Origin: Syntrophaceae bacterium
GTDB lineage: Bacteria; Desulfobacterota; Syntrophia; Syntrophales; PHBD01
Assembly (NCBI GenBank): GCA_013177825.1
Contig: JABLXX010000004.1
Span: 101,990 to 165,989 of the forward strand
Length of the DNA stretch: 64,000 nucleotides
Direction of reading: 5' to 3'
Positions 16,856 through 37,834 of this stretch are shown one piece after another. Made by a program: the position numbers and the translations under genes. Each line of letters starts with the position of its first letter. Position 1 is the stretch's first letter. The notes under the pieces are model-generated. The model did not search any database. It had not been told where the DNA came from and was given only the letters and a program-made list of their open reading frames with translations.

Positions 16856-16866
16856 AGGAGGCGACG

Positions 16867-17841: not shown

Positions 17842-17856
17842 TTTTGCGGATAGCGA

Positions 17857-18972
17857 ATGGCTGACACTGGAAAAGAAAGGCGCCTGCCCGTCCTGGAGGA
17901 TACGCTCCGCATGGTGGCCTGGGAGGTCACCCGGCGCTGCAACCTCGCCTGCGTCCACTGCCGGGCCTCCTCCGAGCGGGGCCCTTACCCGGGCGAGTTG
18001 ACCACGGATGAAGGCCTGCGCCTCCTGGACGACATTGCCGCCTTCAGCCGGCCCGTCATCATCCTAACGGGAGGCGAGCCCCTGCTTCGGGAGGACGTCT
18101 ACGACCTGGCCGCTTACGGGACGAAAAAGGGCCTGCGGATGGTCCTGGCCACCAACGGCACCCTCGTAACGGAGACCGTTGCTCGGCGGATGATTGAAGC
18201 GGGCATCCAGAGGGTCAGCATCAGCATCGACGGGGCCGACGCGGCGAGCCACGACGCTTTCCGGTGTGTCTCCGGAGCCTTCGAGGGCGCCATGGCCGGC
18301 ATCGAGGCCATGAGGCGGGCGGGCCTGGAATTCCAGATCAACACGACGATCACCCGGGCGAACCTGGCCGCGATCGGCCGGATCCTCGACCTCGCCGTCA
18401 GGATCGGGGCGGCGGCCCACCACATCTTCCTCCTCGTCCCCACGGGCCGGGGGCGGGAGATGGCCGACCAGGCCATCTCGGCGGAGGAATACGAAGAGAC
18501 CCTGAAGTGGTTCGCCGGACAGGACCGCCGGTCGCCCATCCAGCTCAAGGCCACCTGCGCCCCCCACTATTTCCGGGTCGTGCGCCAGCAAAAGAAGCTG
18601 AAGGCGGGAGACAGTGACTCCGGGTCGGCCGGGGCGGGGGCATCGGGTCCCCAGGGCCATCCCTTCCACGCCATGACCCGGGGATGCCTGGGGGGGAGCG
18701 CCTTCTGCTTCATCTCCCACACCGGCCAGGTGCAGCCCTGCGGCTACCTGGAGGTGGACTGCGGCCGCGTACGGGAGCGGGGGTTCGAGGCGGTGTGGAA
18801 GGAATCGGCTGTTTTCAAGGACCTGCGGGACCTGAACCGCTACGGCGGCAAGTGCGGCCGCTGCGAGTTCATCCGGGTTTGCGGCGGCTGCCGCGCCCGC
18901 GCCTACGAGGCGACGGGGGATTACCTGGCGGAGGAGCCTCTCTGCATTTACGAGCCGGGGGGCAGTCGATAG
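17857..18972 (+). CDS. ahbC: radical SAM/SPASM Fe-coproporphyrin III synthase of the alternative haem pathway (AhbC/NirJ1-like)
   Basis: ORF 17857..18972. CNLACVHCR motif, GGEPLLRED, C-terminal CGRCEFIRVCGGCRARA. Paralogous to the gene at 15674. The C versus D assignment is by synteny only. Confidence 0.65.
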   Translation: MADTGKERRLPVLEDTLRMVAWEVTRRCNLACVHCRASSERGPYPGELTTDEGLRLLDDIAAFSRPVIILTGGEPLLREDVYDLAAYGTKKGLRMVLATNGTLVTETVARRMIEAGIQRVSISIDGADAASHDAFRCVSGAFEGAMAGIEAMRRAGLEFQINTTITRANLAAIGRILDLAVRIGAAAHHIFLLVPTGRGREMADQAISAEEYEETLKWFAGQDRRSPIQLKATCAPHYFRVVRQQKKLKAGDSDSGSAGAGASGPQGHPFHAMTRGCLGGSAFCFISHTGQVQPCGYLEVDCGRVRERGFEAVWKESAVFKDLRDLNRYGGKCGRCEFIRVCGGCRARAYEATGDYLAEEPLCIYEPGGSR

Positions 18973-19058
18973 AGGGCGGGCCGGGAGCATGCCCGGACCG
19001 GGGGAAGAGGAACAACGGGGCGCAGGGAATGCGCCGACTGGGAGAACGGAGCGAGACA

Positions 19059-19457
19059 ATGAAGAGAGTGTGGCTGACGGCGGTGTTGATCCTCACCTTT
19101 CTGGCCGGAACGGCCCTGGCCGCGGGGCCTTCCTTTCAGGACATGGACACGGACAAGGACGGAAAGCTGTCCCGCCAGGAGGTGGATGCCGCGGCGGAAA
19201 AGGTGTTCAAGGAGGCCGACAAGGACCGGGACGGCTACCTGAGCGAGCAGGAGTTCAAGGCCATCCAGGGGGCGCGGTCGAAGTTCAAGGACCTGGACAG
19301 GAACAAGGACGGCAAGCTGTCCATGGACGAGCTCAGGAAGTCGGCGGACAAAAGATTCCAGTACCTGGACCGGAACCGGGACGGCTCCATTGACGCGCCG
19401 GAAAGCAAGATCCGCCGGGCGCCTGAAGTGAGCCCTCTGTTCAGAGTTTATTTCTGA
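19059..19457 (+). CDS. exported protein with four EF-hand calcium-binding loops
   Basis: 3' part of ORF 18684..19457, ATG 19059. Signal peptide MKRVWLTAVLILTFLAGTALA. Loops DTDKDGKLSRQE, DKDRDGYLSEQE, DRNKDGKLSMDE, DRNRDGSIDAPE. Confidence 0.75.
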   Translation: MKRVWLTAVLILTFLAGTALAAGPSFQDMDTDKDGKLSRQEVDAAAEKVFKEADKDRDGYLSEQEFKAIQGARSKFKDLDRNKDGKLSMDELRKSADKRFQYLDRNRDGSIDAPESKIRRAPEVSPLFRVYF

Positions 19458-19468
19458 ACGTTGTTGCG

Positions 19469-19505
19469 ACGGGCGGAGACCGGCCGGAACGGCCGAGCCG
19501 CCCGT
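19469..19505 (+). other. hairpin (8-bp stem ACGGGCGG/CCGCCCGT) between the EF-hand gene and the ahbA/B-type gene
   Basis: Inverted repeat read at 19469-19476 and 19498-19505, followed only by TTT. Possible weak terminator or attenuator. Confidence 0.3.
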
Positions 19506-19517
19506 TTACGGTGAGTG

Positions 19518-19964
19518 ATGATGGACGGCAAGGACCGGGAGATTCTGAACATCCTCCAGAAGGAGTTTCCCCTGGAGGCGGCGCCCTTCAGGGCGGTCGG
19601 GGAGGCCGTGGGCCTCCCGGAGGGCGAGGTCCTGCGCCGGGTCCGCGCGCTCCGGGAGAAGGGGGTGATCCGCCGCATCGGGGCCTCCTTCAACCCCCGG
19701 AAACTGGGGTTCGTCAGCACCCTCTGCGCCGCCCGGGTCCCCGATGAGATGGCCGGCTCCTTCGTGAAGACCGTAAACGCCTATCCCGGCGTCACCCACC
19801 ATTACCGCCGGGATCACGAGTACAACTGCTGGTTCACCTTCATCGCCCCGTCCGAGGAGGCCCTGGAATCTTCGCTCGCGGAGATCCGGGAGAAAACGGG
19901 GATCGAGATCCTGAGCCTCCGCGCGGTCAAAACCTACAAGATCGACGCCACCTTCGAGCTGTAA
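19518..19964 (+). CDS. siroheme decarboxylase subunit (AhbA/AhbB, NirD/L/G/H Lrp-AsnC-like family)
   Basis: ORF 19515..19964 (GTG then ATG ATG). DREILNILQKEFPLEAAPFRAVGEAVGLPEGEVLRRVRALREKGVIRRIGA, then YPGVTHHYRR. Typical of AhbA/B-type proteins. A versus B cannot be decided by eye. Confidence 0.75.
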   Translation: MMDGKDREILNILQKEFPLEAAPFRAVGEAVGLPEGEVLRRVRALREKGVIRRIGASFNPRKLGFVSTLCAARVPDEMAGSFVKTVNAYPGVTHHYRRDHEYNCWFTFIAPSEEALESSLAEIREKTGIEILSLRAVKTYKIDATFEL

Positions 19965-23194: not shown

Positions 23195-24187
23195 TCACTG
23201 AATGGCGCAGCACTGGCCCAGATAGGGGTCGCGCTGCGAGAGATGGTTTGCGACGTAATCCTGCACGGCTTCCTCCAGGGGGGCGGACGGGACGGGACAG
23301 CCCGTAGAGGCGAGGCGGTCCGTTTTCGCTTCCGTGAAGTACTGGTACTGCTCGTCCAGCCCCGGCGGCATGTCGATGTAGTCGATGACTGCGGGCCGGT
23401 CCATGGCCCGGAAGACCGCCGCCATCAGGTCGTTCCAGGTCCGGGCCTTTCCGCTTCCCAGGTTGAAGATCCCGTTGGCCTCCGGGTGGTTCAGGAGCCA
23501 CCACATCGCCTCCGCGCAGTCCTTCACGTAGACGAAGTCCCGCATCTGCCCGCCGTCGGCGTACTCGGGGCGGTACGACTTGAACAGCCGGACCTTCCCG
23601 GTGGCGCGGATCTGGTGGAAGGCCTTGAAGACAACGCTCGTCATGTCGCCCTTGTGGTACTCGTTGGGGCCGAAGACGTTGAAGAACTTGAGGCCCGCCA
23701 TGTGCCGGTCGGCGCCGCGCCGGAGCGCCCAGAGGTCGAAGACCTGCTTCGAGTAGCCGTACATGTTGATGGGCTTGAGAAGCGCCGACGTCGCGTCGTC
23801 GTCGGAGAAGCCCAGGGAGCCGTCGCCGTAGGTGGCCGCGGAGCTGGCGTAGAGGAAGCGGATGCCGTTCCGGATCGCCCAGTCGGCCAGTCGGCAGGAA
23901 TAGAGGTAGTTGTTCGTCCAGAGGTAGTCGGCGTCCTTCTCCGTCGTGGACGAGCAGGCGCCCATGTGGACCACGGCCCGGACGGTGAAGGGCACCTGGT
24001 CGGCGTAGACCATCTTGAGGAAGTCGTCCTTGTGGATGTATTCGACGAACCGCCGGTTCACGAGGTTCTTCCACTTGTCGGAGGTCCCCAGGCGGTCGAC
24101 GACGACGATGTCCTCGATGCCTTCGCTGTTGAGCTTCCACACGAAGGCGCTGCCGATGAAGCCGGCGCCGCCGGTGACGACGATCAT
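23195..24187 (-). CDS. hldD: ADP-L-glycero-D-manno-heptose 6-epimerase
   Basis: 3' part of ORF 23195..24475. ATG 24187 after GGAAGGAAG (alternative ATG 24208). MIVVTGGAGFIGS, catalytic YGYSK, about 330 aa. Adjacent to kdsB. Confidence 0.85.
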   Translation of the reverse strand: MIVVTGGAGFIGSAFVWKLNSEGIEDIVVVDRLGTSDKWKNLVNRRFVEYIHKDDFLKMVYADQVPFTVRAVVHMGACSSTTEKDADYLWTNNYLYSCRLADWAIRNGIRFLYASSAATYGDGSLGFSDDDATSALLKPINMYGYSKQVFDLWALRRGADRHMAGLKFFNVFGPNEYHKGDMTSVVFKAFHQIRATGKVRLFKSYRPEYADGGQMRDFVYVKDCAEAMWWLLNHPEANGIFNLGSGKARTWNDLMAAVFRAMDRPAVIDYIDMPPGLDEQYQYFTEAKTDRLASTGCPVPSAPLEEAVQDYVANHLSQRDPYLGQCCAIQ

Positions 24188-24240
24188 GCCTGCATCTTCC
24201 TTCCGCATGGTTGAAAGGCCTCTCGCGCTTCCCGGCCCCG

Positions 24241-25443
24241 CTACAGGGCCTCGGCCGCCTTCTTCACCGCCGCCCGGATCTGCTCCAGGCGCCCCTCGGG
24301 CATCCGGATCGGGAGGCCCAGGAAGAGGGTCCGCCCCAGGAGGTCGTGGGCCTGCGGGTACTGGCGGATGCTGTAGTCCACCTTCCCCCGGTAGATGGGA
24401 TTCGTGAAGGGGAAGCTCTTCGGGTTGGCCGTGGACCAGGCGATCAGGTGCTCCCAGTTGGCCAGGTAGTGCCACTTGTTCTTCTTGAAACAGACCGTGT
24501 CGACGCCGCCCGCGCCGAGGGCCGCCTGGAAGGCCTCCGCCTGTGCCTCCGTGGGGAAGTTGAAGGCCAGGTGCGTCGCCGTGTCGCCATCCGGGTCCGG
24601 GATCGCCCGGAAGCCGATCACGGGGATGCCCGACAGCATTTCCTTCACGGCGGCCTTGTTCTTCTTCTGCTCCGCGATGATGAAGTCGAGCTTCCGGAGC
24701 TGGGCGAGGCCCAGGGCTCCCTGCAGTTCGTTCATCCGGAAGTTGAACCCGAGGATGGTGCGGCCTTCCATGGCCCGGCTGACGTTCGGGTTGTGGTCGT
24801 GACCGTGGTCGTGGTACCAGTCGGCCCGGTCGTAGAGGTCCTTCCTGTCCGTCAGGACCATCCCGCCCTCGCCGGTGGTCAGGGTCTTGTAATAATCAAA
24901 GCTGAACGTGCCCATCTCCCCGAAGGTGCCGAGCTTTCTTCCCTTGTAGCTTCCGCCGACGGATTGGGCGTTGTCCTCCAGGACCATGAGCTGGGAGCTG
25001 CGGCAGGTCTCCATAATCCGGCCGATGTCCGCCGGGGCGCCGCACATGTGGACGGGAATGACGGCCTTCGTGTAGGGCGTCATCTTCCGGATGATGTCGT
25101 CGGGGTCCATGTTCAGGGACGCGTCGATGTCCGCCGCGACGGGGATGGCCCCCACCTCGAGGACGGCCTCGTACGTTGCGATAAAGGTAAATGCCGGAAC
25201 GATGACCTCATCGCCGGGGCCCACGCCCATGGCGGAGAGAGCCACCGAGAGGGCCGTCGACCCGGACGTGACGCCCAGGGCGTGGGCGGCTCCGTGATAG
25301 CGCTTGAACTCCTCCTCGAACTGGCGGACCTTGAAGACGCCCTTCCGCTCCTTATCGAATCCGTAACGCGCGAAGACGCCCGTTTCCAGGACGTCCAGAA
25401 CTTCCTTTTTCTCCTCGCTGCCGATCAGTTCCATTCCGGACAT
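24241..25443 (-). CDS. DegT/DnrJ/EryC1-type PLP-dependent sugar aminotransferase (KdnA-like candidate)
   Basis: ORF 24241..25443, 400 aa. PLP-lysine context SFDYYKTLTTGEGG. Small-domain pattern typical of sugar aminotransferases. Confidence 0.8.
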   Translation of the reverse strand: MSGMELIGSEEKKEVLDVLETGVFARYGFDKERKGVFKVRQFEEEFKRYHGAAHALGVTSGSTALSVALSAMGVGPGDEVIVPAFTFIATYEAVLEVGAIPVAADIDASLNMDPDDIIRKMTPYTKAVIPVHMCGAPADIGRIMETCRSSQLMVLEDNAQSVGGSYKGRKLGTFGEMGTFSFDYYKTLTTGEGGMVLTDRKDLYDRADWYHDHGHDHNPNVSRAMEGRTILGFNFRMNELQGALGLAQLRKLDFIIAEQKKNKAAVKEMLSGIPVIGFRAIPDPDGDTATHLAFNFPTEAQAEAFQAALGAGGVDTVCFKKNKWHYLANWEHLIAWSTANPKSFPFTNPIYRGKVDYSIRQYPQAHDLLGRTLFLGLPIRMPEGRLEQIRAAVKKAAEAL

Positions 25444-25488
25444 GGCTTTTTCTCCATCCTTGTCGTTTTTGATCGTGGGAAGGGACGC

Positions 25489-26646
25489 TCAGAGAGCATC
25501 CCGGTAAATGTCGATGGCGTCCTCCCGGGTGACTTTCCGGGGGTTGTTGGCCAGCGGGCGCGCCACGGTGAGGGCGACGTCCGCCAGGGCCGGCAGATCC
25601 TTCTCGGCGATGCCGAATTCCTCCAGGGTCATTGCCAGGCCGCAGTCCTCGATGAGGAGCTCTACCGCGTCCAGGGCGAGCGTGGCGGCGTCCCGCATCG
25701 AGACGCCTTCCACCTCCTGCCCCATGACCTCGGCGAGGACGGCGAACTTCTCGATGGCGCCGGGAAGGTTGTAGGCCATCACCGCGGGAAGCATCAGGGT
25801 GTTGGCCATCCCGTGGGGGATGCCCCAGGCGCCGCCGAGGGGGTACGAGAGGGAGTGGACCGCCGTGACGCCCGCATTCGCCAGGCCAAGGCCCGCGTAA
25901 AGGCTTCCCAGGAGCATGCGTTCCCGGGCCTCCAGGTCGCTTCCGTTGTGAACGCAGGTCCGCAGGTTCTCGGCGATGAGGCCAACGGCCTCCAGGGAAA
26001 TCGTTTCGCTCATGGGTGATGCGTTGATGGAGGTGTACGACTCGATGGCGTGGCAGAGGGCGTCGATTCCCGTGGAGGCGGTGGCCTGCGCGGGGAGGCT
26101 CAGGGTCAGTTCCGGGTCCAGGAGGGCGACTTCGGGGTACAGGTAGGGGCTGTTCATGCCCTCTTTCTTCTTCAGGTTCTTTCGGACGAAGACGGCCGTG
26201 AAGGTGACCTCGCTGCCGGTGCCGGCGGTAGTGGGGACCATGATGGTCGGGAGGCCCGGACCGGGGACCTTGTTCAGTCCCAGGTAATCGACGGCCTTGC
26301 CCTTGTTGCCGGCCAGGGCGGCCACGGCCTTGGCCACGTCCATGGAGCTGCCGCCGCCGATCCCCACGACGAGATCGCACTTGCCCTTCAGGGCGGCCTT
26401 GGCGCCCTCGTCGGCCCTCTCCAGGGCCGGTTCCGGCTCCACGCCGTCAAACAGCGAATAGCGCAGGCCGCTCTTGTCGAGCAGGTCCTTCACGGTTTTC
26501 CGGAAGCCTGCCTCGGCCAGGGCGTGATCGAGAACGATCAGGGGGCGTGCCCCCCCCAGTTCCCGGATGTGGTCGGCCAGGCTGCGGAAGGAGCCCGTGC
26601 CGAAAACGATTTTTTTTGCCCCCGTATAGGTGAACGGTCGGATCAT
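25489..26646 (-). CDS. iron-containing (group III) alcohol dehydrogenase family oxidoreductase (KdnB-like candidate)
   Basis: ORF 25489..26646, 385 aa. GGGSSMDVAKAV nucleotide motif and His-rich metal site (HAIESY, HSLSYPLGG...HG). Confidence 0.8.
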   Translation of the reverse strand: MIRPFTYTGAKKIVFGTGSFRSLADHIRELGGARPLIVLDHALAEAGFRKTVKDLLDKSGLRYSLFDGVEPEPALERADEGAKAALKGKCDLVVGIGGGSSMDVAKAVAALAGNKGKAVDYLGLNKVPGPGLPTIMVPTTAGTGSEVTFTAVFVRKNLKKKEGMNSPYLYPEVALLDPELTLSLPAQATASTGIDALCHAIESYTSINASPMSETISLEAVGLIAENLRTCVHNGSDLEARERMLLGSLYAGLGLANAGVTAVHSLSYPLGGAWGIPHGMANTLMLPAVMAYNLPGAIEKFAVLAEVMGQEVEGVSMRDAATLALDAVELLIEDCGLAMTLEEFGIAEKDLPALADVALTVARPLANNPRKVTREDAIDIYRDAL

Positions 26647-28037: not shown

Positions 28038-28844
28038 ATGGGCGACATGACAAAACATCCCATCGGCGTGTTCGACTCCGGCGTGGGAGGGCTCACGGTA
28101 GTGCGGGCGCTCATGGAGCGGCTCCCCTTCGAGGGCATCGTCTATTTCGGAGATACCGCCCGGGTTCCCTACGGCGTCAAGTCCGTCGAGACGGTGACCC
28201 AGTACGCCATCGAGATCACGGACTTCCTGCTGAAGAAGGGAGTCAAACTCCTCGTCATCGCCTGCAACACCGTCGCCGCCGTGGCCGGTGACGCCGTGCG
28301 GAGCCGCTCGCCCGTGCCGGTCCTGGACGTCATCGACGCCGGCGCCCGTTCCGCCGTCCGGGAGACACGCTCCCACCATGTCGGCGTCATCGGGACCCCC
28401 GCCACGATCAACAGCAACGCCTATGCCCGGGCCATTCATGCCCTCGATCCGGCGACCCGCATCTTTTCCCAGGCCTGTCCGCTTTTCGTGCCCCTCGTGG
28501 AGGAAGGGTGGCTCGATCACACAGTGACGCGGATCACGGCCAACGAATACCTGAAGCCCGTCCTGGCGGAGCACCTGGACACCCTGGTCCTGGGGTGCAC
28601 CCATTATCCCCTGCTGAAACCACTCCTCGGAGAGATCGCCGGTCCCGATGTTCACCTGGTGGATTCGGGGGAGGCGATGGCGGATGCCACGGCGGACCTC
28701 CTGACGGAGCTTCACCTGGGAAACCCGAGCCGGGAGAAGCCCTCCTATTCCTGCTATGTCAGCGACGTTCCTTTCCGGTTCCAGACCATGGCCGAGCGGT
28801 TTCTCGGCAGGACGATCGGCCACGTCGAGCTGGTGAAACTCTGA
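28038..28844 (+). CDS. murI: glutamate racemase
   Basis: ORF 28038..28844. IGVFDSGVGGLTV, the two catalytic Cys contexts IACNTVAA and LGCTHYPLL. Confidence 0.9.
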   Translation: MGDMTKHPIGVFDSGVGGLTVVRALMERLPFEGIVYFGDTARVPYGVKSVETVTQYAIEITDFLLKKGVKLLVIACNTVAAVAGDAVRSRSPVPVLDVIDAGARSAVRETRSHHVGVIGTPATINSNAYARAIHALDPATRIFSQACPLFVPLVEEGWLDHTVTRITANEYLKPVLAEHLDTLVLGCTHYPLLKPLLGEIAGPDVHLVDSGEAMADATADLLTELHLGNPSREKPSYSCYVSDVPFRFQTMAERFLGRTIGHVELVKL

Positions 28845-30080
28845 ATGATGGAACGGGTCGTTGTCACCGGACTGGGAACCCTCAACGCAACCGCCAAGAG
28901 CGCCCCTGTCTTCGCGCAGGCCCTGCGGGAGGGCCGCTGCGGGATCGGGCCGTTTTCGGTCTTCGATCCCTCGACGTTCCGGACACAGATCGCCGCGGAA
29001 GTGAAGGATTTCAATCCCCGCGACCACATCCCCCGGCCGTACCCGATCAAGCGCATGTCCCGGGCGGACCTTCTCGGATTCGCCGCGACCCTGGAGGCCC
29101 TGCAGGACGCCGGGCTAGCCCCGCTTTCGCCGGTACTGGCGGAGGAGACGGGCGTCGTCATCGGCGGAGGCGGGGGGGGGCTCCTGGAGGGGGAGCGGTT
29201 CTACGGCGAATACCTGCGCACGGAGGGCAGGCTGGCCCGCTTCTCTGCCCTGTCGGCGGTCTACTGCGCCTCATCGGCGGACCGGATCGCGAGCCTCCTG
29301 GGGCTCCGGGGACCCAAGACCACCTTCATGACGGCCTGCTCTTCCGGGGCCACCGCCGTCGGCTACGCCCGGGACCTGATCCGGAGCGGAGCAGCCCCGG
29401 TCGTCATCGCCGGCGGGACCGAGCCCCTCTGCCGCATCACCTACGCCGCTTTCAACGCTCTCCAGGCGGTGGACCCGGAACCCTGCAAGCCCTTCGCCGG
29501 AAACCGGGCGGGTCTTTCCCTGGGAGAGGCGGCGGGGATCCTGGTTCTCGAGTCCCTCGGACACGCCCGGGCCCGGGGGGCCCGGATCTATGCCGAGGTG
29601 CTGGGCTACGGCGTCACCTGCGACGCGCACCACATGACGGCCCCCGACCCGGAGGCCTCCGGGGCGGTCCGGTCGATGCGGGAGGCCCTGCGCGACGCCG
29701 GCGTTTCCGCGGAGCGGGTCGATTACGTCAACGCCCACGGCACCGCCACGCCGGCCAACGATGTCATGGAGAGCCGGGCCATCCGGCACGTCTTCGGCGA
29801 CCGGGCCGGGCGAATCCCCGTCAGCTCCACGAAGTCCATGACGGGCCATACCCTGGGCGCCTCGGGAGCCCTCGAGGCGGTCGCGTCCGTCCTGGCGATC
29901 CGCCACCGGTTCATCCCGCCGACGATCCACTGCACCGTGCCGGATCCCGAATGCGATCTCGACTATGTCACCGAGGGGGCGCGGGAAACGGACCTGGCGG
30001 TGATTCTGTCCAATTCCTTCGCCTTCGGGGGGAACAACACCTCGCTCGTCATCGGGCGGTTCGAAGGAGGGAACGGGTAG
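28845..30080 (+). CDS. beta-ketoacyl synthase (FabF/KAS II-like) with intact Cys-His-His triad
   Basis: ORF 28845..30080. The ATG abuts the murI TGA. Active-site contexts TACSSGATA (Cys), NAHGTATPAND (His), SMTGHTLGASG (His). Confidence 0.85.
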   Translation: MMERVVVTGLGTLNATAKSAPVFAQALREGRCGIGPFSVFDPSTFRTQIAAEVKDFNPRDHIPRPYPIKRMSRADLLGFAATLEALQDAGLAPLSPVLAEETGVVIGGGGGGLLEGERFYGEYLRTEGRLARFSALSAVYCASSADRIASLLGLRGPKTTFMTACSSGATAVGYARDLIRSGAAPVVIAGGTEPLCRITYAAFNALQAVDPEPCKPFAGNRAGLSLGEAAGILVLESLGHARARGARIYAEVLGYGVTCDAHHMTAPDPEASGAVRSMREALRDAGVSAERVDYVNAHGTATPANDVMESRAIRHVFGDRAGRIPVSSTKSMTGHTLGASGALEAVASVLAIRHRFIPPTIHCTVPDPECDLDYVTEGARETDLAVILSNSFAFGGNNTSLVIGRFEGGNG

Positions 30081-30081
30081 C

Positions 30082-31317
30082 ATGGACCGGCGCGTCGCGA
30101 TCACCGGCATCGGCATCGTCTCCCCCCTCAGCTCCGGCCGCGAGGCCTTCGGGAAGGCCCTTTTTGCCGGGGAAAGCGGGATCGCCCCCGTGACCGCATT
30201 TCCCGTGGAGGCGCTTTCCTGCCGGCTGGCGGCGGAAATCCGCGATTTCCAGGCGAGGGACTTCATCTCCGTCAAAAACCTCCGGCGCATGGACCGCCTC
30301 TCCGCCGTGGCGACGGCGGCGGCCCGGATGGCCTTGGACGACGCGGGGCTCGCCGTAACGCCGGCCAACCGGGACCGCACGGGCATGATCCTGGGGACGG
30401 CCTGGGGCGGCACCGACGTGACGGTCTCCTTTGCCCGGGTCCTGGTGACGGAGGGACCCGGATCCGCCAACCCGATCCTCGTGCCCAACGTGGTCATGAA
30501 CGCCCCGGCGGGGCATGCCTCCATCGAGCTGGGGTTCCGGGGGATCAATACGACGGTCAACCACTACGCCGTCTCGGCGGAGTCGGCCCTGGCCTACGGC
30601 GCTCAGGAGATCCGGCGGGGCGCCGCGGACGTCCTTCTGGCCGGCGGGGCCGACGTCCTGGCCCCTTTCTACTTCGAGTCCCTGACGCGCTTCAAGGCGC
30701 TGTCGCCCCTCCAGGGCGGGGGCTCCGAAGGCGCCCGCCCCTTCGACCTCCGGCGGAACGGGCCGGTGGCAGGGGAGGGCTGCGGGATCCTCTGCCTGGA
30801 GCCGCTGGATGCGGCCCGGGAGCGGGGCGCAACCGTCCATGCGGAGATCGTGGGGCAGGGCATGGCCTCTTCGCCGGCGCCCATGACCGGCTGGCCGGAG
30901 GACCCGCGGGGCCTTGTCCTGGCGGTCCGCCGGGCGCTCCGGTCCGCCGGTTGCGGGCCGGAGGACGTGGACGCCGTCTTCGCCGCCGCCAGCGGCGGCC
31001 TTCAGCCGGACCTCCTGGAGGCGGAAGGGCTGGAGCAGGTGTTCGGGCCAGGTGGAAAGATGCCGCTCGTGACGGCCCTGAAGGGCGCCCTCGGGGAGAG
31101 CTTCACCTCCGGGGGGATGCGGGCGGCGGCCTTGGCCCTGGCGCTCCGGGACGGCGCCGTGCCCCCCACCCTGGGACTGGAAGACCCGGTCCGGCCACTG
31201 AATATCGTGACGGGGCCGTCCGTCCGGGCGAATGTGCAAAGAGGACTCCTGAACGGGATCTCCCACGGGGGGAGCTACGTCTCCCTTCTGTTTTCCAATA
31301 TCGGGGAAGAATCATGA
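30082..31317 (+). CDS. ketosynthase-fold protein lacking the catalytic triad (chain-length-factor/KS-beta-like partner)
   Basis: ORF 30082..31317, 1 nt after the KS stop. Aligned by eye to the upstream KS: ACSSG becomes AVSAE, AHGTAT becomes AAASGG, TGHTLG becomes KGALGE. Cys, His and His are all replaced. Confidence 0.75.
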   Translation: MDRRVAITGIGIVSPLSSGREAFGKALFAGESGIAPVTAFPVEALSCRLAAEIRDFQARDFISVKNLRRMDRLSAVATAAARMALDDAGLAVTPANRDRTGMILGTAWGGTDVTVSFARVLVTEGPGSANPILVPNVVMNAPAGHASIELGFRGINTTVNHYAVSAESALAYGAQEIRRGAADVLLAGGADVLAPFYFESLTRFKALSPLQGGGSEGARPFDLRRNGPVAGEGCGILCLEPLDAARERGATVHAEIVGQGMASSPAPMTGWPEDPRGLVLAVRRALRSAGCGPEDVDAVFAAASGGLQPDLLEAEGLEQVFGPGGKMPLVTALKGALGESFTSGGMRAAALALALRDGAVPPTLGLEDPVRPLNIVTGPSVRANVQRGLLNGISHGGSYVSLLFSNIGEES

Positions 31318-32837
31318 ACATCGGAGAATGGATTGAAAAGAGGGCCTTTACCCACCCGGACCGGGAATTCCTGAAGGACGGTGAGCGGGCCTTCAGCAAC
31401 CGGGCCTTCAACGAGCGGGTCAACCGGACGGCCCGGGCGCTCCAGAACCTGGACATCGTGAAGGGCGAGCGCCTGGCGCTCATCATGGGCAACACGAGCG
31501 AATTCCTGGAGATCTTCTTCGCCTGCGCCAAGACGGGGGCCATCCTGGTGCCTGTGAACTACAGACTGGCGGGGCCGGAGATCGAATACATCCTCCGCGA
31601 CTCGGCCCCCCGGGGGCTCGTCTACGCCGTCGAGTTTGCCGAAAAGGCGGCTCCCCTCAAGGAGCCGGGCCTGGGGATCCGCCACTGGATCCGCCACGGC
31701 GGAGAGCCCCTTCCCGGGGAATCGCTCCTGTCGGACCTGACGGCGGCCGAGTCGGATGGCGAGCCAAGGCCGATGGAGGAAGTGACGGGCGAGGACCCCC
31801 TCTTCATTATGTACACCTCCGGAACGACGGGCGATCCGAAAGGGGCCGTCCTGACCCATGGGAACATCCTCTTCGGGGCCGTCCATTCCCTCATCGGCTA
31901 CGGCGTCAACCGGACCTACCGGTCCCTCGTCGTGGCGCCCCTCTTCCACATCGGCGCCCTGGCGGCGTCGGTCACGCCGGTCATCTACGCCGGCGGCTCC
32001 GTCGTCCTGTCGGGGTTCTTCAACGCCTCGGAAGTCCTCCTGACCATTGTCCGGGAGCGGATCAACTACATGTTCGCCGTCCCCGTCATGTTCCAGATCA
32101 TGGCGGACACGCCCGAGTGGGCCGGGGCGGACCTGTCCCACGTCCACTTCTTCATTTCCGGGGGGGCGCCGATCCCCCTCCCGGTCATCCGGAAGTACCA
32201 GGACGAGAAGGGGATCGGCTTCGTCCAGGGCTACGCCCTCACGGAGACGGGGCGGCTCACGTCGCTGGACCTGGAGGACGCCGTCCGGAAGGCCGGGTCC
32301 GTGGGCAAGGAGGTCTTCCACGTGCGGCTCCGCATCGTCGACGAGGAAGACCGGGACGTCGCCCCCGGGGAGCCCGGGGAGATCGTCGTGAAAGGTCCCA
32401 ATGTCTTCTCCGGCTACTGGCGGAAGCCGAAGGAAACTGCGGAGGCCAAGAAAGGCGGCTGGTTCCGGACGGGCGACATGGGGCGGCGGGACGAGGACGG
32501 ATTTCTCTACATCATCGGCCGCAAGGTGGAGATGATCATCTCCTCCGGGGAGAACATCTACCCCGCCGAGGTGGAGCGGGCGATCCAGTCCCTCCCGGCG
32601 GTGAAGGAAGCGGCGGCCGTGGGCATGCCGGACCCGAAGCGGGGAGAGGTGGTGGCGGCCTTCGTGCTGCTCAGGGAGGGCGAGGCTGTGACGGAGGAGG
32701 ACATCCTGGCAGGGCTCCAGGGGAAGATCGCCCCCTTCAAGATGCCGAAGCGGATTTTCTTCGTCGACTCCTTCCCGAGGAATCCCGGCGGCAAGATCCT
32801 CAAGCGCATCCTCCAGAAGCGCCTGCGGGAGGGATGA
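31314..32837 (+). CDS. acyl-CoA synthetase / acyl-adenylate-forming ligase (AMP-binding family)
   Basis: 3' part of ORF 30951..32837. ATG 31314 overlaps the upstream stop (ATGA). AMP motif MYTSGTTGDPKGA, TGDMGRRDEDGFLYIIGR, C-terminal PRNPGGKILKR. Confidence 0.85.
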   Translation: MNIGEWIEKRAFTHPDREFLKDGERAFSNRAFNERVNRTARALQNLDIVKGERLALIMGNTSEFLEIFFACAKTGAILVPVNYRLAGPEIEYILRDSAPRGLVYAVEFAEKAAPLKEPGLGIRHWIRHGGEPLPGESLLSDLTAAESDGEPRPMEEVTGEDPLFIMYTSGTTGDPKGAVLTHGNILFGAVHSLIGYGVNRTYRSLVVAPLFHIGALAASVTPVIYAGGSVVLSGFFNASEVLLTIVRERINYMFAVPVMFQIMADTPEWAGADLSHVHFFISGGAPIPLPVIRKYQDEKGIGFVQGYALTETGRLTSLDLEDAVRKAGSVGKEVFHVRLRIVDEEDRDVAPGEPGEIVVKGPNVFSGYWRKPKETAEAKKGGWFRTGDMGRRDEDGFLYIIGRKVEMIISSGENIYPAEVERAIQSLPAVKEAAAVGMPDPKRGEVVAAFVLLREGEAVTEEDILAGLQGKIAPFKMPKRIFFVDSFPRNPGGKILKRILQKRLREG

Positions 32838-33979
32838 TGGAGATCCTGCCCTGGACCGGTGAGCACCGGGCCTTCCGCGAGGAATTCCGCGGGTTCCTCG
32901 CCAGAGAGGTCATTCCCTTCGTGGACCGGTGGGAGGCCGACGGCATCGTTCCCCGGTCGGCCTGGCTGGCCATGGGCGCAGCAGGGTTTCTCTGCACCGA
33001 CGTGCCCCGGGAGTACGGCGGCCGCGGCCTCGATTTCCTCCATTCCGTCATCGTCGTGGACGAGATGGCGAAGACCAACTGCTACGGTCTCTCCCCGCGG
33101 CTCCACAGCAACGTGGTCGTCCCCTACATCACGTCCTTCGCCTCCGAAGAGCTCAAGCACCGCTACCTGCCAGGCTGCATCCGGGGCGAGATCGTCACCG
33201 GCATCGCCATGACGGAGCCCCACGCCGGGAGCGACGTGGCGGCCATCCGGACAAGTGCCGTGGAGGACGGCGATTTCGTGGTCCTGAACGGCCAGAAGAC
33301 CTTCATCTCCAACGGAACCAACGGCGACCTCTTCGTGGTGGCCGCGAAGGACCCGGCGACGGAGGACCCCCACCGGGCCGTGGACATCTACCTGGTGGAG
33401 GGGAAGACCCCGGGCTTCGAAAGGGGGCGCCGCCTGAAGAAGGCGGGCTGGCACAGCCAGGACACGACGGAGATCTTCTTCCACGACTGCCGGGTGCCCC
33501 TGACCCACCGCCTCGGCGGGAAGGGCTCGGGGTTCAAGAACCTGATGCGGCACCTCCAGCCGGAGCGCCTTGTCGTGGCCATCGGCGCCGTCTCCGCGGC
33601 GGAGTGGGTCCTGGAGCACACGATTTCCCACGTGAAGAAGACGGACGTCTCGGGGACGGCCCTGTCGTCGTTCCAGCACGTCCGCTTCGAGATCGCCGAA
33701 ATGGCTACGGAGGTCCAAATCGGCCGGACCTTCGTGGACAAGCTCATCGCCGACCACATCGAGGGGAAGAACGTCGTCCGGGAGGTCTCCATGGCCAAGT
33801 GGTGGACCACCGAGACGGCCTGGCGGATCGCCGACCGGTGCCTCCAGCTCCACGGCCGCCTGGGCCTCGACGAGAGCGGCCCCCTCGCCCGGGCCTGGCG
33901 GGACCTCCGCGTCACCCGCATCCTCGCCGGCACCAATGAAATCATGAAAGGCATCATCGCCCGGATGACGGGGATATAA
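32834..33979 (+). CDS. acyl-CoA dehydrogenase
   Basis: 3' part of ORF 32117..33979. ATG 32834 overlaps the ligase stop (ATGA). TGIAMTEPHAGSDVAA, QKTFISNG, C-terminal RILAGTNEIMKGIIAR. Confidence 0.85.
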   Translation: MMEILPWTGEHRAFREEFRGFLAREVIPFVDRWEADGIVPRSAWLAMGAAGFLCTDVPREYGGRGLDFLHSVIVVDEMAKTNCYGLSPRLHSNVVVPYITSFASEELKHRYLPGCIRGEIVTGIAMTEPHAGSDVAAIRTSAVEDGDFVVLNGQKTFISNGTNGDLFVVAAKDPATEDPHRAVDIYLVEGKTPGFERGRRLKKAGWHSQDTTEIFFHDCRVPLTHRLGGKGSGFKNLMRHLQPERLVVAIGAVSAAEWVLEHTISHVKKTDVSGTALSSFQHVRFEIAEMATEVQIGRTFVDKLIADHIEGKNVVREVSMAKWWTTETAWRIADRCLQLHGRLGLDESGPLARAWRDLRVTRILAGTNEIMKGIIARMTGI

Positions 33980-33988
33980 TGAGAAAAT

Positions 33989-34033
33989 AGGTCGGATTTA
34001 TTTTCTATGTTGCAGTGCAAAATAATCTGACCT
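33989..34033. repeat. imperfect inverted repeat in the only AT-rich spacer of the locus
   Basis: AGGTCGGATTTATTTT (33989-34004), a 14-nt loop, then AAAATAATCTGACCT (34019-34033). It lies between the ACAD stop and the first radical-SAM gene. Confidence 0.5.
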
Positions 34034-34049
34034 ACTTTTCGAGGGAGCC

Positions 34050-35159
34050 ATGAACGTCCGGATCGTCAACCTTCACCCGGGGTGCGAGAACAACGCCCTG
34101 TTTCTTTCCCGGGCCCGGCGCTACTTCGAGTTGAACGGCCACCGGGCCGGTGGCGAGAGGGAGGCGGACCTGGTGTTTGTGGGGGCCTGCGTCGTGACCG
34201 ACTGGATGCGCCGGCGGTGCGAGGAAGCCATCGCCGGGGCGATGCACAGCCATCCGCTGGCTCATTTCGTTGTCTTCGGCTGCCTGGCGGCCTTTCCCGG
34301 GGAACTGCAGGCGTGCCTCGGCGGGGAGGCCGCCCGGATCCGGTTCATCCCGTACGGAGCGAGCGCCGAACTGGACGCCCTCGTCGGGGCGCGCGTTCCT
34401 TTCGAGACCGTCCACGTCTCCCGTCTTGAAGGGCACCGTCCCTACCAGCCCCGCATGGGGCCGGATGACCGCTACCTCCTGATCTCCCAAGGTTGTGTCA
34501 ACGACTGCAGCTACTGCAGCATCCGGCTGGCCAAGGGGCGGGTCCGTAGCCGGCCGGCGGAGGAGATCGAGGCGGATGCCCGCGAACTGTACGATCAGGG
34601 CGTCCGGACCGTGACCCTGCTCGCGGACGACTGCGGCTCCTACGGCCTCGACCGGGACGACGACCTTCCGGGGCTGCTTGGCCGGATCTGCAGGATCGCC
34701 CCGGACCTCCGGATCAAGCTCTACACGGTGTTCCCGGCCCTGTTCCTGCAATACGCCGACCGGCTGGCACCGTTTTTCGCCGCCGGGCGCATCCCCTACG
34801 TCTGCCTGCCCGCCCAATCCGCATCCCCGCGCATCCTGGACCTGATGAACCGCCGCTACGACCCCGGCCGCCTGGCGGATGCGGTTCTCCGGCTCCGTGC
34901 CCTCGATCCCGGCGTCTTCGTCTATTCCCACTTCATCTTTGCCTTCCCAACGGAGACCTGGGAGGAGCTTGCGGAAAGCGTCTCCTTCGCCGGACTCTTC
35001 GATCACTCCGTCTTCATCGGCTATGGTGGAAACCGGGTGACCCGGGCGGCGGCCCTGGCCTCCCGGTGCGACGACGCCGACCGGCAGGCAAAAGCGGATT
35101 ACCTGGGGCGACTGGTGGCGGAAGGAAAGCTCGCCTCGTTCGTGGTGCCCTATGCCTGA
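34050..35159 (+). CDS. radical SAM protein, methylthiotransferase-like (UPF0004 N-domain + rSAM core) without TRAM domain, paralogue A
   Basis: ORF 34050..35159, 369 aa, RBS GAGGGAG. N-terminal Cys at 12, 47 and 78 (MTTase spacing). Core GCVNDCSYCSIRLAKGRVRSR. The protein ends about 30 aa after the barrel. Confidence 0.75.
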   Translation: MNVRIVNLHPGCENNALFLSRARRYFELNGHRAGGEREADLVFVGACVVTDWMRRRCEEAIAGAMHSHPLAHFVVFGCLAAFPGELQACLGGEAARIRFIPYGASAELDALVGARVPFETVHVSRLEGHRPYQPRMGPDDRYLLISQGCVNDCSYCSIRLAKGRVRSRPAEEIEADARELYDQGVRTVTLLADDCGSYGLDRDDDLPGLLGRICRIAPDLRIKLYTVFPALFLQYADRLAPFFAAGRIPYVCLPAQSASPRILDLMNRRYDPGRLADAVLRLRALDPGVFVYSHFIFAFPTETWEELAESVSFAGLFDHSVFIGYGGNRVTRAAALASRCDDADRQAKADYLGRLVAEGKLASFVVPYA

Positions 35160-36318
35160 TCCCGCAGCGGCCCCGAAGCCCGGCATCTTCGTCTTCAACC
35201 CGAGCCGGCGCTGCGCCCCCGGCGCATACCTCTTTACCCAGGCGGTCCGCTTCTTCCTCCTGAACGGCCACCCCCTGGTGCGGGACGTCCGGGACGCCGG
35301 GATCATCCTCGTGAACTCCTGCTGCGTCACGGAGGGAAAGATCGGCACGTCCCTGGCGGCGCTCGAGACGGCCAGGAGTCACGGGAAGGGGAAGAGCGTG
35401 GTTCTCCTGGGCTGCCTGGCCGGCCTGCCGGACACCCCGTTCGATCCGGAGGGGGTGTTGTGCGTCGGGCCGAAGGACCTGGACCTTCTCGATACGCATT
35501 TTCCAAACCGGATCCCTGTCCGGGCGGCCGCGGCGAGCCGCCTGCCGCCGGAGTTCTTCCTGCCGGGACAGCACCTCGGTCCGCAGGACGCCTTCCTCTT
35601 CATCGGCCAGGGATGCGTGAACGCCTGTTCCTACTGCAACATCCGCCGCGCGAAGGGAGGCCTGTCGAGCGTGCCCGTGGAGTCGATCCTCTCCCGGGCC
35701 CGCAGCGGGCTCGAACGAGGCGTGCGGGAATTCGCCCTGCTGGCGGATGACTGCGCCAGCTACGGCCGGGACATCGGGAGCGACCTGGTCGATCTGATCG
35801 GGGGGCTCCTCGGGCTGGACGGCGGCTTGTCGCTCAAGCTGAGCTACGTGTTCCCATCCTTCGTGGAGGATCGCTTCGACGATCTGGCGCCGCTCTTTGC
35901 CACCGGGCGCATCCGCTACGCGAACATCCCGCTCCAGTCGGGCTCGCAGCGCATCCTGGACCTGATGAACCGGCGCTATCCCATCGGCCGGGTCGTGGAG
36001 CGCGTGCGACGGCTCCGGGAGATCGCGCCCCGGTCGCTCCTCTGTACCCATGTCCTCATCAATTTTCCCACGGAGACCCGGGAGGACTTCCGGGCGTCCC
36101 TGGCCCTGGCGGACGCCTTCCGCGACACGTACTTTCTCCACTATTCGGACAACCGGGGGACTCCCGCGGCCCGGCTGGAGCCGAAGGTCCCGCCGGAGGA
36201 GGCGCTGCGGCGGCTGGACGCCGCCTCGGACTTCGTGAACGCCCGGGGGCGGGGGGTGGTGATCCGGGATTTCGACTGCGATCTGCCCTATAACGTCAGC
36301 CGGGATCGGGGTGCCTGA
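35152..36318 (+). CDS. radical SAM protein, methylthiotransferase-like without TRAM domain, paralogue B
   Basis: ORF 35152..36318, 388 aa, with an 8-nt overlap on A. N-terminal Cys at 21, 57 and 88. Core GCVNACSYCNIRRAKGG. Shares LLADDCxSYG, ILDLMNRRY and FPTET with paralogue A. Confidence 0.75.
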   Translation: MPDPAAAPKPGIFVFNPSRRCAPGAYLFTQAVRFFLLNGHPLVRDVRDAGIILVNSCCVTEGKIGTSLAALETARSHGKGKSVVLLGCLAGLPDTPFDPEGVLCVGPKDLDLLDTHFPNRIPVRAAAASRLPPEFFLPGQHLGPQDAFLFIGQGCVNACSYCNIRRAKGGLSSVPVESILSRARSGLERGVREFALLADDCASYGRDIGSDLVDLIGGLLGLDGGLSLKLSYVFPSFVEDRFDDLAPLFATGRIRYANIPLQSGSQRILDLMNRRYPIGRVVERVRRLREIAPRSLLCTHVLINFPTETREDFRASLALADAFRDTYFLHYSDNRGTPAARLEPKVPPEEALRRLDAASDFVNARGRGVVIRDFDCDLPYNVSRDRGA

Positions 36319-37834
36319 CATGGCCCTGCCGCTCATCAAGGTCGTCCAACTCACCCTGACCAACCGGTGCCAGTTGAGCTGCCAACACTGCGGGGTGGCG
36401 GAGCTCAGAAACGTCATGCCCGGCGAGCTGACCCTGGAGCAGATCGACGATGTCTTCCGGGACCTCCGGCTGGCCGGCTGCCTGGTGGTGGATCTCTTCG
36501 GCGGCGAGCCGACGCTCAGGAAGGACCTGTTCGAGATCATCCGGCGCGGAAAGGCCTCCGGATTCATGATGTCCCTGGAGACGAACGGCTGGCTCCTGGA
36601 CGGGGCCTTCGTCCGGGAGCTGGAAGCGGCGGGCCTGAACCAGATCTACCTCAGCCTGGACGATTCCCGCCCGGAGGAGCATGACCGGCGGAGGGGAAGG
36701 GCGGGGAGCTTCGAGCGGGCCGTCCGGGCGTTGGAGCTGGGGGCGGCGACCTCCATGGCCGTGCATGTCTCCATCGTGCCGCAGACGGCCGAATTCTTCA
36801 CCGGCGGTGCCATGAACCGGTTCATGGCCTTCGTCCTGGCGAAGGGGGCCGAAAAGGTGCGGCTCCTCCTGCCCCGCTTTTCCGGCCGGTCGGCCCATCC
36901 AGACGGGACTCCCTTTGCGGCCCGCCGGGAGCGGGATCTCTTCGCCTGCATCGCCCCGGAGTACGCCCCCCACATTTACGTTCACACGCCGGGAACGCCG
37001 TTGGGAGAGACGAATAAGTGCACGGCCAAGAACATCTTCTGCCACATCATGAGCAACGGCTGGATCGCCCCCTGCCCGTACCTTCCCCTCGTCTTTGGCG
37101 ATGCGACCCGGGAATCAGTCGTAGAGGTGTTCGAGCGGATGCAGTCCCATCCGCTGGTTCGGCTGGGCGGCGACACCTGCCCGATGCGGAATCCCGACTA
37201 CATCGAGGAGCACATCCGGCCGATGGGCACGGGACGTCCCTTCTATCCCGTTGCCTCGAAAAACCAGGTGGATCTCGGCGCCCCCTGCCCGCCGGACTGC
37301 CGCGGCTGCGATGCCGCCGGAAGGCCGTCGCGCAGGCCCGCCGAGGCGGTGATCCGCGACCTTCAGGCCGTGGACCCGAACTACCGGAGCATCGAGTTCT
37401 ACGGCGGGGACGCGCTGCTCCGGGCCGATCTGATCGGCATCCTTGGCCGCGTTCCCCCGGGCATGGATATCCGCCTCTGGACCACGGGAAGCTGGCTGCC
37501 GGAGGATCCGGGGTTCCGGGAACAGTTACGTTCCTTTCCCGTCCGCGCCATCCGGGTGATGATGCCGCTTGGCGAGGCGGGGACACCGGGCGGCCTGGGA
37601 GACGCTCTCGGACGGATCCGGGCCGTGCAGGGGCTGGGCATCCCCATCCATCTGTACGCCCCGGCGGACGCCCCGGCGGAGGCGCACCGGATTGTGGCCG
37701 AAAACGCGGCCCGTCTGGGGGTGGAGCGGATCTATCTCTTCCGCCGGGATCCGGTGTCGCCCCTGTCGAACGCAGTCGCCTGTTTCGGCAGGGCCCTCGG
37801 CCGGGCAAGGCTTGCCTGGGCCGCCCGACCATAA
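36311..37834 (+). CDS. radical SAM protein with SPASM/twitch-like Cys cluster and a C-terminal second CxxxCxxC module
   Basis: ORF 36311..37834 (GTG 36311 overlaps B by 8 nt; alternative ATG 36320). CQLSCQHC plus GGEPTL. Auxiliary CTAKNIFCHIMSNGWIAPCPY...GDTCP. A second CPPDCRGC (nt 37286-37309) is followed by YGGDALL. Confidence 0.75.
   Translation: MPDMALPLIKVVQLTLTNRCQLSCQHCGVAELRNVMPGELTLEQIDDVFRDLRLAGCLVVDLFGGEPTLRKDLFEIIRRGKASGFMMSLETNGWLLDGAFVRELEAAGLNQIYLSLDDSRPEEHDRRRGRAGSFERAVRALELGAATSMAVHVSIVPQTAEFFTGGAMNRFMAFVLAKGAEKVRLLLPRFSGRSAHPDGTPFAARRERDLFACIAPEYAPHIYVHTPGTPLGETNKCTAKNIFCHIMSNGWIAPCPYLPLVFGDATRESVVEVFERMQSHPLVRLGGDTCPMRNPDYIEEHIRPMGTGRPFYPVASKNQVDLGAPCPPDCRGCDAAGRPSRRPAEAVIRDLQAVDPNYRSIEFYGGDALLRADLIGILGRVPPGMDIRLWTTGSWLPEDPGFREQLRSFPVRAIRVMMPLGEAGTPGGLGDALGRIRAVQGLGIPIHLYAPADAPAEAHRIVAENAARLGVERIYLFRRDPVSPLSNAVACFGRALGRARLAWAARP

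Follow-up and report, generated by a model that had tools for sequence, protein, structure and literature searches.

The window analysed here, a stretch of 64,000 nucleotides of contig JABLXX010000004.1 (hereafter C20) from a Syntrophaceae bacterium of the order Syntrophales, encodes two adjacent proteins of the ketosynthase fold: P0001, an active FabF-like ketosynthase (KS), and P0002, a partner that has lost the catalytic residues (KSmut). This pairing of a KS with an inactive partner is real, and the two proteins appear to belong to the same family as the amxFabF2/amxFabFmut heterodimer of anammox bacteria. P0001 and P0002 probably form an obligate heterodimer of a KS and a chain-length factor (CLF), which would be the elongation core of an aryl-polyene-like lipid cluster; the gene block that carries them would have been displaced from this cluster, the remaining parts of which, encoded on another contig of the same genome (C1), would act in trans.

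The catalytic residues were located in a MAFFT alignment of P0001, P0002, the FabF proteins of B. subtilis and T. thermophilus, and the anammox pair. P0001 keeps the Cys, both His residues, the Lys, and the gate Phe (motifs TACSSG, AHGTAT, and TGHTLG), in agreement with the original prediction, made by eye from this DNA, that the first protein carries the KAS II triad. It had also held that the second protein is of equal length and alignable throughout, which is the case (both have 411 aa and share 33% identity end to end), that the second gene starts 1 nt past the stop of the first (the KS stop, TAG, lies at 30078-30080 and is followed by one base and the KSmut ATG at 30082), and that the second protein has lost the triad. 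All three residues are indeed gone: the Cys column is occupied by Ala163 (the first Ala of HYAVSAE), the first His column (His1) by Ala (AAASGG), and the second (His2) by Glu (KGALGES). In addition, Thr302 is replaced by Gly, and the Lys is retained (Lys328 column). The Val that had been placed at the nucleophile position is the next residue. The phmmer alignments of P0002 to FabFs in the Protein Data Bank (PDB) give the same register, neither method reveals a hidden Cys/His/His set in P0002, and the by-eye register was one off at the nucleophile, a slip that leaves unchanged the conclusion that P0002 lacks both the nucleophile and the decarboxylation histidines.

P0001 scores 424 bits against the FabF equivalog model TIGR03150 (cut-off 494 bits; P0002 reaches 286 bits) and lies above the cut-off of the FabF subfamily model NF005589 (418 vs. 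387 bits). With scores under the equivalog cut-off, and with a true acpP-fabF pair elsewhere, on contig C3, the window gene is not the housekeeping FabF (KAS II). Among the KS homologues of this genome whose motifs were read (the two window proteins and four at 786-802 kb of C1), P0002 alone is without the triad, and the four on C1 are intact; further homologues are the housekeeping FabF on C3 and one at 904 kb of C1.

The loss of the triad is not due to chance, because 121 P0002 homologues share the altered columns and the upstream KS proteins keep Cys/His/His. The His2 column is Glu in all 121; the Cys column is Ala in 104, Gly in 11, Glu in 4, Ser in 2, and Cys in none; and the His1 column is Ala in 101, with other residues in the rest. 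All 19 KS partners that were examined, on the other hand, keep the full catalytic set. Across 25 homologues of P0002 the mean column identity is 66%, and the many invariant positions include His161, Glu167, Glu339, and P131-V134-P135-N136-N140-A141. Against three close relatives, dN/dS is 0.19-0.22 for KSmut, compared with 0.12-0.17 for KS and, for two genes that follow the pair, 0.13-0.14 (an adenylate-forming ligase) and 0.11-0.15 (an acyl-CoA dehydrogenase, ACAD). KSmut is therefore under purifying selection that is only slightly relaxed, and the conservation and dN/dS values together rule out a decaying pseudo-enzyme.

A protein search of 5.8 billion sequences returned more than 1000 P0002 homologues; those listed below the closest clade have about 55-64% identity and come mainly from Syntrophales, as well as from other Thermodesulfobacteriota. 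In a scan of one genome per species, 192 species have a P0002 relative, and the best 80 of these 192 are nearly all Syntrophaceae, Smithellaceae, or other Syntrophales metagenome-assembled genomes. Within the sampled Syntrophales, 50 of 151 genomes, from 24 of 62 genera, carry exactly one copy, and the organism's own genus does so in all seven of its genomes. The gene neighborhood was surveyed at 80 loci, 78 of which extend at least 1.3 kb upstream and 47 of which span at least 15 kb (referred to below as large loci). A P0001-type KS (60-94% identity) lies directly 5' of KSmut in every one of the 78. The KS and KSmut subtrees also have the same shape, each grouping the window protein with L016, L020 with L018 and L025, the set L033, L049, and L069, and a Smithellaceae group. 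Apparent KSmut-ligase fusions in L033 (943 aa) and L037 (920 aa) were dismissed, as an internal stop is present.

The best PDB matches of P0001 are B. subtilis FabF (332 bits) and 9s5h_B, which is amxFabF2 (328 bits); those of P0002 are T. thermophilus FabF (235 bits) and 9s5h_C (221 bits). Entries 9s5h and 9s5i match the amxFabF2/amxFabFmut heterodimer of Brocadia fulgida (bioRxiv 10.64898/2026.05.19.726425). The two anammox proteins, for which crystal structures exist, co-purify and are each inactive alone; together they decarboxylate malonyl-acyl carrier protein (ACP) and form acetoacetyl-ACP in vitro, and amxFabFmut by itself shows no activity and no crosslink to probe-loaded ACP (bioRxiv 10.64898/2026.05.19.726425). 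A helix-loop-helix dimerisation motif lies at 110-140, and Phe135 and Val139 of amxFabFmut shape the substrate-length preference. The same preprint describes the heterodimer as the first CLF in a fatty-acid pathway and its cluster as unique to ladderane producers.

P0002 shares with amxFabFmut/Kuste3606 (Rattray et al., 2009; PMC2649909, Table 2) the changes of His333 to Glu and Thr302 to Gly, the retained Lys328, and a PN.V.NAPA motif that stands in place of the FabF P(M/I)M(I)xxMA segment. Phe135 and Val139 of amxFabFmut correspond to Val134 and Val138 of P0002, the former invariant and the latter at least 90% conserved in the family. Maximum-likelihood analysis (LG+C20 PMSF) places amxFabFmut as the sister of the KSmut family (support 100/98). 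A tree constrained to unite the two anammox proteins is worse by 14.1 log-likelihood units (p-AU 0.015), and an anammox-only origin of the inactive partner is rejected by this approximately unbiased test. P0001 and amxFabF2 share three indels relative to FabF. The likeness to the anammox pair (KustE3605/3606; Granatino et al.; PDB 9s5h/9s5i) is that an active FabF-like KS adjoins a full-length FabF-like partner devoid of Cys/His/His, with the substitutions and the helix-loop-helix just named, and that a gene for a B12-dependent radical S-adenosylmethionine (SAM) enzyme of the TIGR04072 'ladderane-type' is also found in this genome. In contrast to the anammox arrangement, in which the mutant gene comes first, the KS gene comes first here; the nucleophile column is Ala rather than Val/Thr and His1 is Ala rather than Asn; a ligase and an ACAD follow the pair, which is separated from its carrier protein; and the host is a Syntrophales bacterium not known for ladderanes.

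An AlphaFold model of the P0002 monomer (pTM 0.83) has the FabF fold, with a TM score of 0.80 to many FabFs, and is of low confidence at 45-70 and 108-140, a span that includes the 110-140 helix-loop-helix. Low confidence at exactly these interface segments may fit a heterodimer, although it is suggestive only. A Foldseek search with this model listed ordinary FabFs only (TM 0.80), 9s5h not being among the 50 matches listed, and therefore adds nothing beyond the fold.

In most relatives, the genes for KS, KSmut, ligase, and ACAD lie inside a cluster that resembles type II fatty-acid synthase (FAS) or polyketide synthase (PKS) clusters and is aryl-polyene-like. A ligase orthologue is found within 8 kb of the pair in 33 of the 47 large loci, mostly directly after KSmut, and an ACAD orthologue within the same distance in 18, usually after the ligase; neither gene had been mentioned in the original prediction. 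At no fewer than 40 loci beyond the organism's own genus clade, the block is flanked by polyene/lipid cluster genes. For instance, a complete Smithellaceae chromosome (L082) encodes an ApeP-like dehydratase, a ketoreductase of the short-chain dehydrogenase/reductase family, a LolA-like protein, an amine-oxidase/phytoene-desaturase-like protein (PDH), an ACP, a third KS, and an acyltransferase, followed by KS, KSmut, ligase, ACAD, a B12-binding protein, an aromatic-amino-acid ammonia-lyase, a 4HBT thioesterase, and a DegV/FakA-like protein. Related loci continue 3' with a glycosyltransferase, an MMPL-methyltransferase fusion, and a lipid-A-type acyltransferase. The cultured species Syntrophus gentianae (GCA_900109885.1) likewise has the order KS-KSmut-ligase-ACAD. 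In two Syntrophus loci (L008, 14041-14869; L012, 6728-7553), two small proteins of 130 and 150 aa follow the ACAD. These have no Pfam match and signal- or lipoprotein-like N-termini, and their homologues in the present genome are at 220589-221378 of C1. The glutamate racemase gene (murI) directly precedes the KS in the window, an arrangement confined to the five closest relatives (L013 and L015-L017).

The pair had been described as lying outside a PKS context, with no carrier protein or reductive enzymes. Within the window this holds: domain scans found no dedicated ACP, dehydratase, desaturase-like flavoprotein, or B12 radical SAM enzyme there, and the carrier protein domain PF00550 has no match in the window or elsewhere on C20. 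The description does not extend to the relatives, whose pairs sit in the type II FAS/PKS-like cluster. A search of the genome for orphan ACPs had been proposed as a check; four ACPs are encoded on C1 (at 786728, 793256, 800632, and 806695), in addition to acpP on C3.

The best matches to the cluster genes of the relatives lie at 766-807 kb of C1, most with 50-79% identity; an ApeP-like and a 243-aa protein are about 40% identical to their counterparts. This region of some 40 kb (L098, L093, and L094) is a lipid/polyene-like cluster that includes the four ACPs, four intact KSs, and PlsY/PlsC-like acyltransferases, and one of its B12 radical SAM enzymes passes the 'ladderane-type lipid biosynthesis' equivalog TIGR04072 (389 vs. 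360 bits). Its further content comprises a second B12 radical SAM enzyme, two other radical SAM genes, an ammonia-lyase of the HAL/TAL family, a ketoreductase, an ApeP-like dehydratase, two 4HBT thioesterases, a BtrH_N/DUF4872 protein, a LolA-like protein, an MMPL-methyltransferase fusion, and an ABC transporter; the cluster is interrupted midway by ClpA and aat. The selectivity pair of the ammonia-lyase, read by eye, is Phe-His, which is not a pattern known for Tyr, Phe, or His ammonia-lyases. The only PDB match of the dehydratase is 6qsr_B, the ApeI/ApeP entry.

No KS, KSmut, or ligase of the block type is present at 766-807 kb of C1, and the unique best matches of all three in this genome are the window genes on C20. 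In L082, the interval from LolA to the B12-binding protein holds PDH, a second ACP (ACP2), the third KS (KS3), the acyltransferase (AT), KS, KSmut, ligase, and ACAD; on C1, the LolA and B12-binding genes are separated only by a gene for a 218-aa protein, and ACP2-KS3-AT is about 18 kb away. Because the rest of the cluster is on C1 and is without exactly this block, the pair is a displaced part of a split cluster rather than an orphan. The C1 cluster is aryl-polyene-like overall, and the pointers to anammox are confined to the KS pair and the TIGR04072 enzyme. Kinship of the C1 cluster as a whole to that of anammox bacteria was rejected, its ACP and dehydratase matching 9ls6_A and 6qsr_B instead of amxACP and amxFabZ. 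Elsewhere the genome has a housekeeping fabH (next to an ACP-like gene) as well as the acpP-fabF pair, and the KS pair is therefore unlikely to serve bulk lipid synthesis. The genome also encodes about 70 adenylate-forming ligase paralogues with 25-37% identity to the cluster ligase, an unusually large number for 4.2 Mb.

By homology to the anammox pair, P0001 would accept the acyl group on its Cys, decarboxylate malonyl-ACP, and carry out the Claisen condensation, and P0002 would be the non-catalytic second half of the dimer. The helix-loop-helix of P0002, with its invariant NP..VPN.V.NAPA, would line the acyl tunnel of the partner and set the chain lengths that fit. Synteny in the relatives suggests that a type II FAS/PKS-like lipid cluster has the pair as its elongation core and that the block of four genes (KS-KSmut-ligase-ACAD) was relocated to a site behind murI in this genus. 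The genes left on C1 would then supply in trans the carrier proteins, the ketoreductase, the ApeP-like dehydratase, the thioesterases, the third KS, and the acyltransferases, as well as the aromatic-amino-acid ammonia-lyase, the B12 radical SAM enzymes, and the LolA/MMPL parts for export. The ligase is the probable activator of the starter acid, which would be of the hydroxycinnamate type or a fatty acid; the kinship of this enzyme to feruloyl-CoA synthetase and FadD13 fits either an ammonia-lyase-derived hydroxycinnamate or a fatty acid in this role. The ACAD may alter the α,β saturation state of the starter before or during extension.

Several points weigh against this reading. The heterodimer, while the most likely arrangement, is taken over by homology from the anammox pair, and the use of the C1 carrier proteins in trans would follow from synteny. 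The phytoene-desaturase-like gene (PDH) of the relatives has no orthologue in this genome, and the C1 dehydratase and ACP have their PDB matches in 6qsr_B and 9ls6_A, not in amxFabZ and amxACP. The grouping of KSmut with amxFabFmut joins two long branches, as the program warned, and the tree gives no resolved link between the active subunit P0001 and amxFabF2. Finally, the electrostatic asymmetry that has been described for the anammox dimer did not emerge from a simple charge count.

The three radical SAM genes downstream of the ACAD are on the same strand as the block and are separated from it by a spacer of only 70 nt, and L013, L016, and L017, which are among the closest relatives, have the same order. 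The block and these genes (34050-37834) could thus constitute a self-contained pathway that runs on the housekeeping AcpP, independently of C1, and yields a sulfur-modified or radical-tailored acyl compound, given that the first two radical SAM genes are TRAM-less and MiaB/RimO-like. This is improbable, however, since radical SAM genes accompany the block only in the genus-level clade (5 of 80 loci, the five closest relatives), where they differ in number and spacing: in L015 an insertion of about 2.2 kb lies between the ACAD and the first radical SAM gene, and L016 is without the second one. At the 40 or more other loci, polyene/lipid cluster genes flank the block instead.

There is very little likelihood that the pair serves ordinary fatty-acid synthesis as an alternative initiation module, in which a malonyl-ACP decarboxylase would supply acetyl- or acetoacetyl-ACP. 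Malonyl-ACP decarboxylation and acetoacetyl-ACP formation are the only reactions seen in vitro with the anammox heterodimer, and P0001 does pass the FabF subfamily model NF005589, but the genome has its own fabH and acpP-fabF, the pair occurs in only one third of Syntrophales genomes, and it travels with the ligase and cluster genes, not with fab genes. P0002 might also have gained a new catalytic or binding function centred on His161, Glu167, and Glu339 (e.g., decarboxylation, thioester hydrolysis, or starter-unit selection). These residues are invariant in the 25 homologues, the Glu of the His2 column is universal in the 121 and common to the anammox protein, the Lys is kept, and the conservation of the old pocket exceeds what a pure scaffold would need. 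A function of this kind is nevertheless highly improbable, as amxFabFmut alone neither has activity nor crosslinks to probe-loaded ACP, and the residues at the Cys and His1 columns differ from one family member to another (Ala, Gly, Glu, Ser, Cys, and Phe). An elongating KS/CLF heterodimer displaced from an aryl-polyene-like cluster is preferred over these three alternatives.

The kind of system is known from the KS/CLF of type II PKS, ApeO/ApeC (PMC8358021), Iga11/Iga12, and the anammox FabF heterodimer, which is the closest. With the KS-alpha/KS-beta pairs of type II PKS (actinorhodin, 1tqy; ishigamide Iga11/Iga12, 6kxd), P0001/P0002 share the logic of a heterodimer with chain-length control and translational coupling. 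On the other hand, the nucleophile column of P0002 is Ala163 and not Gln, and cyclase or aromatase genes were not seen. Because P0002 scores 235 bits to FabF versus 143 bits to the actinorhodin CLF and has no Gln, it is FabF-derived and not a type II PKS CLF. The KS-alpha/KS-beta logic invoked in the original prediction is supported by the adjacency at 78 of 78 loci, the congruent trees, the purifying selection, and the anammox kinship, but not in the sense of descent from such a CLF.

The aryl-polyene KS-CLF ApeO/ApeC of Xenorhabdus and Acinetobacter (PMC8358021) likewise comprises a KS and an inactive partner beside a second, homodimeric KS, and the clusters share two ACPs, a ketoreductase, an ApeP-type dehydratase, a thioesterase, LolA/MMPL, an acyltransferase, a glycosyltransferase, and an adenylating starter enzyme. 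The aryl-polyene gene content, including an aryl-acid-forming and an adenylating enzyme, is found in cis in the relatives and is split between C20 and C1 here. In contrast, P0002 is full-length and FabF-like (235 bits to FabF), no ApeC chain is among its best 60 PDB matches and no ApeO chain among those of P0001, and B12 radical SAM enzymes, a DegV/FakA-like protein, and an ammonia-lyase are extra components of the present cluster. Deltaproteobacteria have been reported to carry clusters syntenic with anammox lipid clusters, some with FabF paralogues that lack active-site residues, and polyunsaturated hydrocarbons are seen in Desulfotalea psychrophila (Rattray et al., 2009; PMC2649909). Clusters of the D. 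psychrophila type are similar in being FAS-like clusters of anaerobes with extra FabF paralogues, radical SAM genes, and phytoene-desaturase-like genes. However, the inactive paralogue was not treated there as a heterodimer partner, and the Syntrophales family, its ligase and ACAD companions, and the split cluster were not described. The idea of a Desulfovibrio biotin-cluster KS pair was dropped, the host being a member of Syntrophales.

The gene string around the pair (Table 1) was called by filtering open reading frames (ORFs) on the GC content of third codon positions (GC3). The window is high in GC (about 0.66 around the KS pair), and the P0001 and P0002 ORFs are both intact. The murI stop TGA abuts the KS ATG (TGAATG); a GGAGG lies 11 nt 5' of the KSmut ATG, within the KS gene; the KSmut stop and ligase start overlap by 4 nt (ATGA); and the ACAD start overlaps the ligase stop. 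The murI gene is a neighbor outside the module and is probably co-transcribed with KS. The best PDB matches of the ligase are feruloyl-CoA synthetase (8wev/8weu; 362 bits) and FadD13, and those of the ACAD are 2pg0 (416 bits) and long-chain ACAD.

Table 1. Genes of the string that contains the KS pair, in window coordinates.
Feature	Coordinates	Strand	Evidence or remark
Glutamate racemase (murI-like) gene	28038..28844	+	TIGR00067, 231 bits (above cut-off of 147)
P0001, active FabF-like ketosynthase (KS), 411 aa, catalytic subunit	28845..30080	+	Pfam ketoacyl-synt N and C
P0002, inactive KS-fold partner (KSmut), 411 aa, CLF-like	30082..31317	+	Both ketoacyl-synthase Pfam domains
Adenylate-forming acyl/aryl-CoA (or ACP) ligase, proposed starter activator	31314..32837	+	Pfam AMP-binding
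Acyl-CoA dehydrogenase (ACAD) family flavoprotein	32834/32837..33979	+	Pfam Acyl-CoA_dh N, M, and C
Three radical SAM genes	34050..37834	+	70-nt AT-rich spacer (33980-34049) after ACAD

The radical SAM genes at the end of this string are two tandem TRAM-less MiaB/RimO-like genes and one for a 507-aa radical SAM protein (36311-37834), the latter with weak matches to AhbC/AhbD models. Elsewhere in the window, two radical SAM/SPASM genes and an AsnC/NirDL-like gene at 15674-19964 resemble the alternative haem (ahb) pathway, although matches to the AhbC/AhbD models were not seen for them. Upstream of the block, the minus strand at 23195-26646 encodes an Fe-alcohol dehydrogenase, a DegT-type aminotransferase, and an NAD-epimerase, a set that also adjoins rlmL-murI in the closest relatives. 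The segment 4001-6000 has a GC content of 0.41, compared with 0.6-0.68 in the rest of the window, which could reflect foreign DNA or a region of RNA genes. At 42006-46430 there is an ORF of 1474 aa whose GC3 is coding-like.

What is new is that the family is large in Syntrophales and shares derived substitutions of the inactive partner with the anammox protein, that KSmut is as a rule accompanied by a ligase, and in many cases by an ACAD, in an aryl-polyene-like cluster, and that the block is detached from this cluster in the present genus. It is a doubtful though conceivable extension that the Syntrophales KS/KSmut corresponds directly to the anammox 'ladderane' heterodimer but is set in an aryl-polyene-like cluster. 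If this were true, anammox Cluster I would not be restricted to ladderane producers; it would be a derived branch of a pathway that is widespread in anaerobes. That pathway would make an unusual lipid, unsaturated or cyclised, by means of a KS/CLF pair of the FabF type together with desaturase-like flavoproteins and B12 radical SAM enzymes, and cultured carriers, for example Syntrophus gentianae, would then be an accessible model for chemistry that cannot be studied in anammox bacteria. The frequency of the anammox-type pair in Syntrophales provides comparative material on which residues of the inactive partner matter, and cultured carriers have been identified in which the product of the pathway could be sought. 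For annotation, a caution follows: an 'orphan' KS pair may be the displaced part of a cluster that is encoded elsewhere in the genome.

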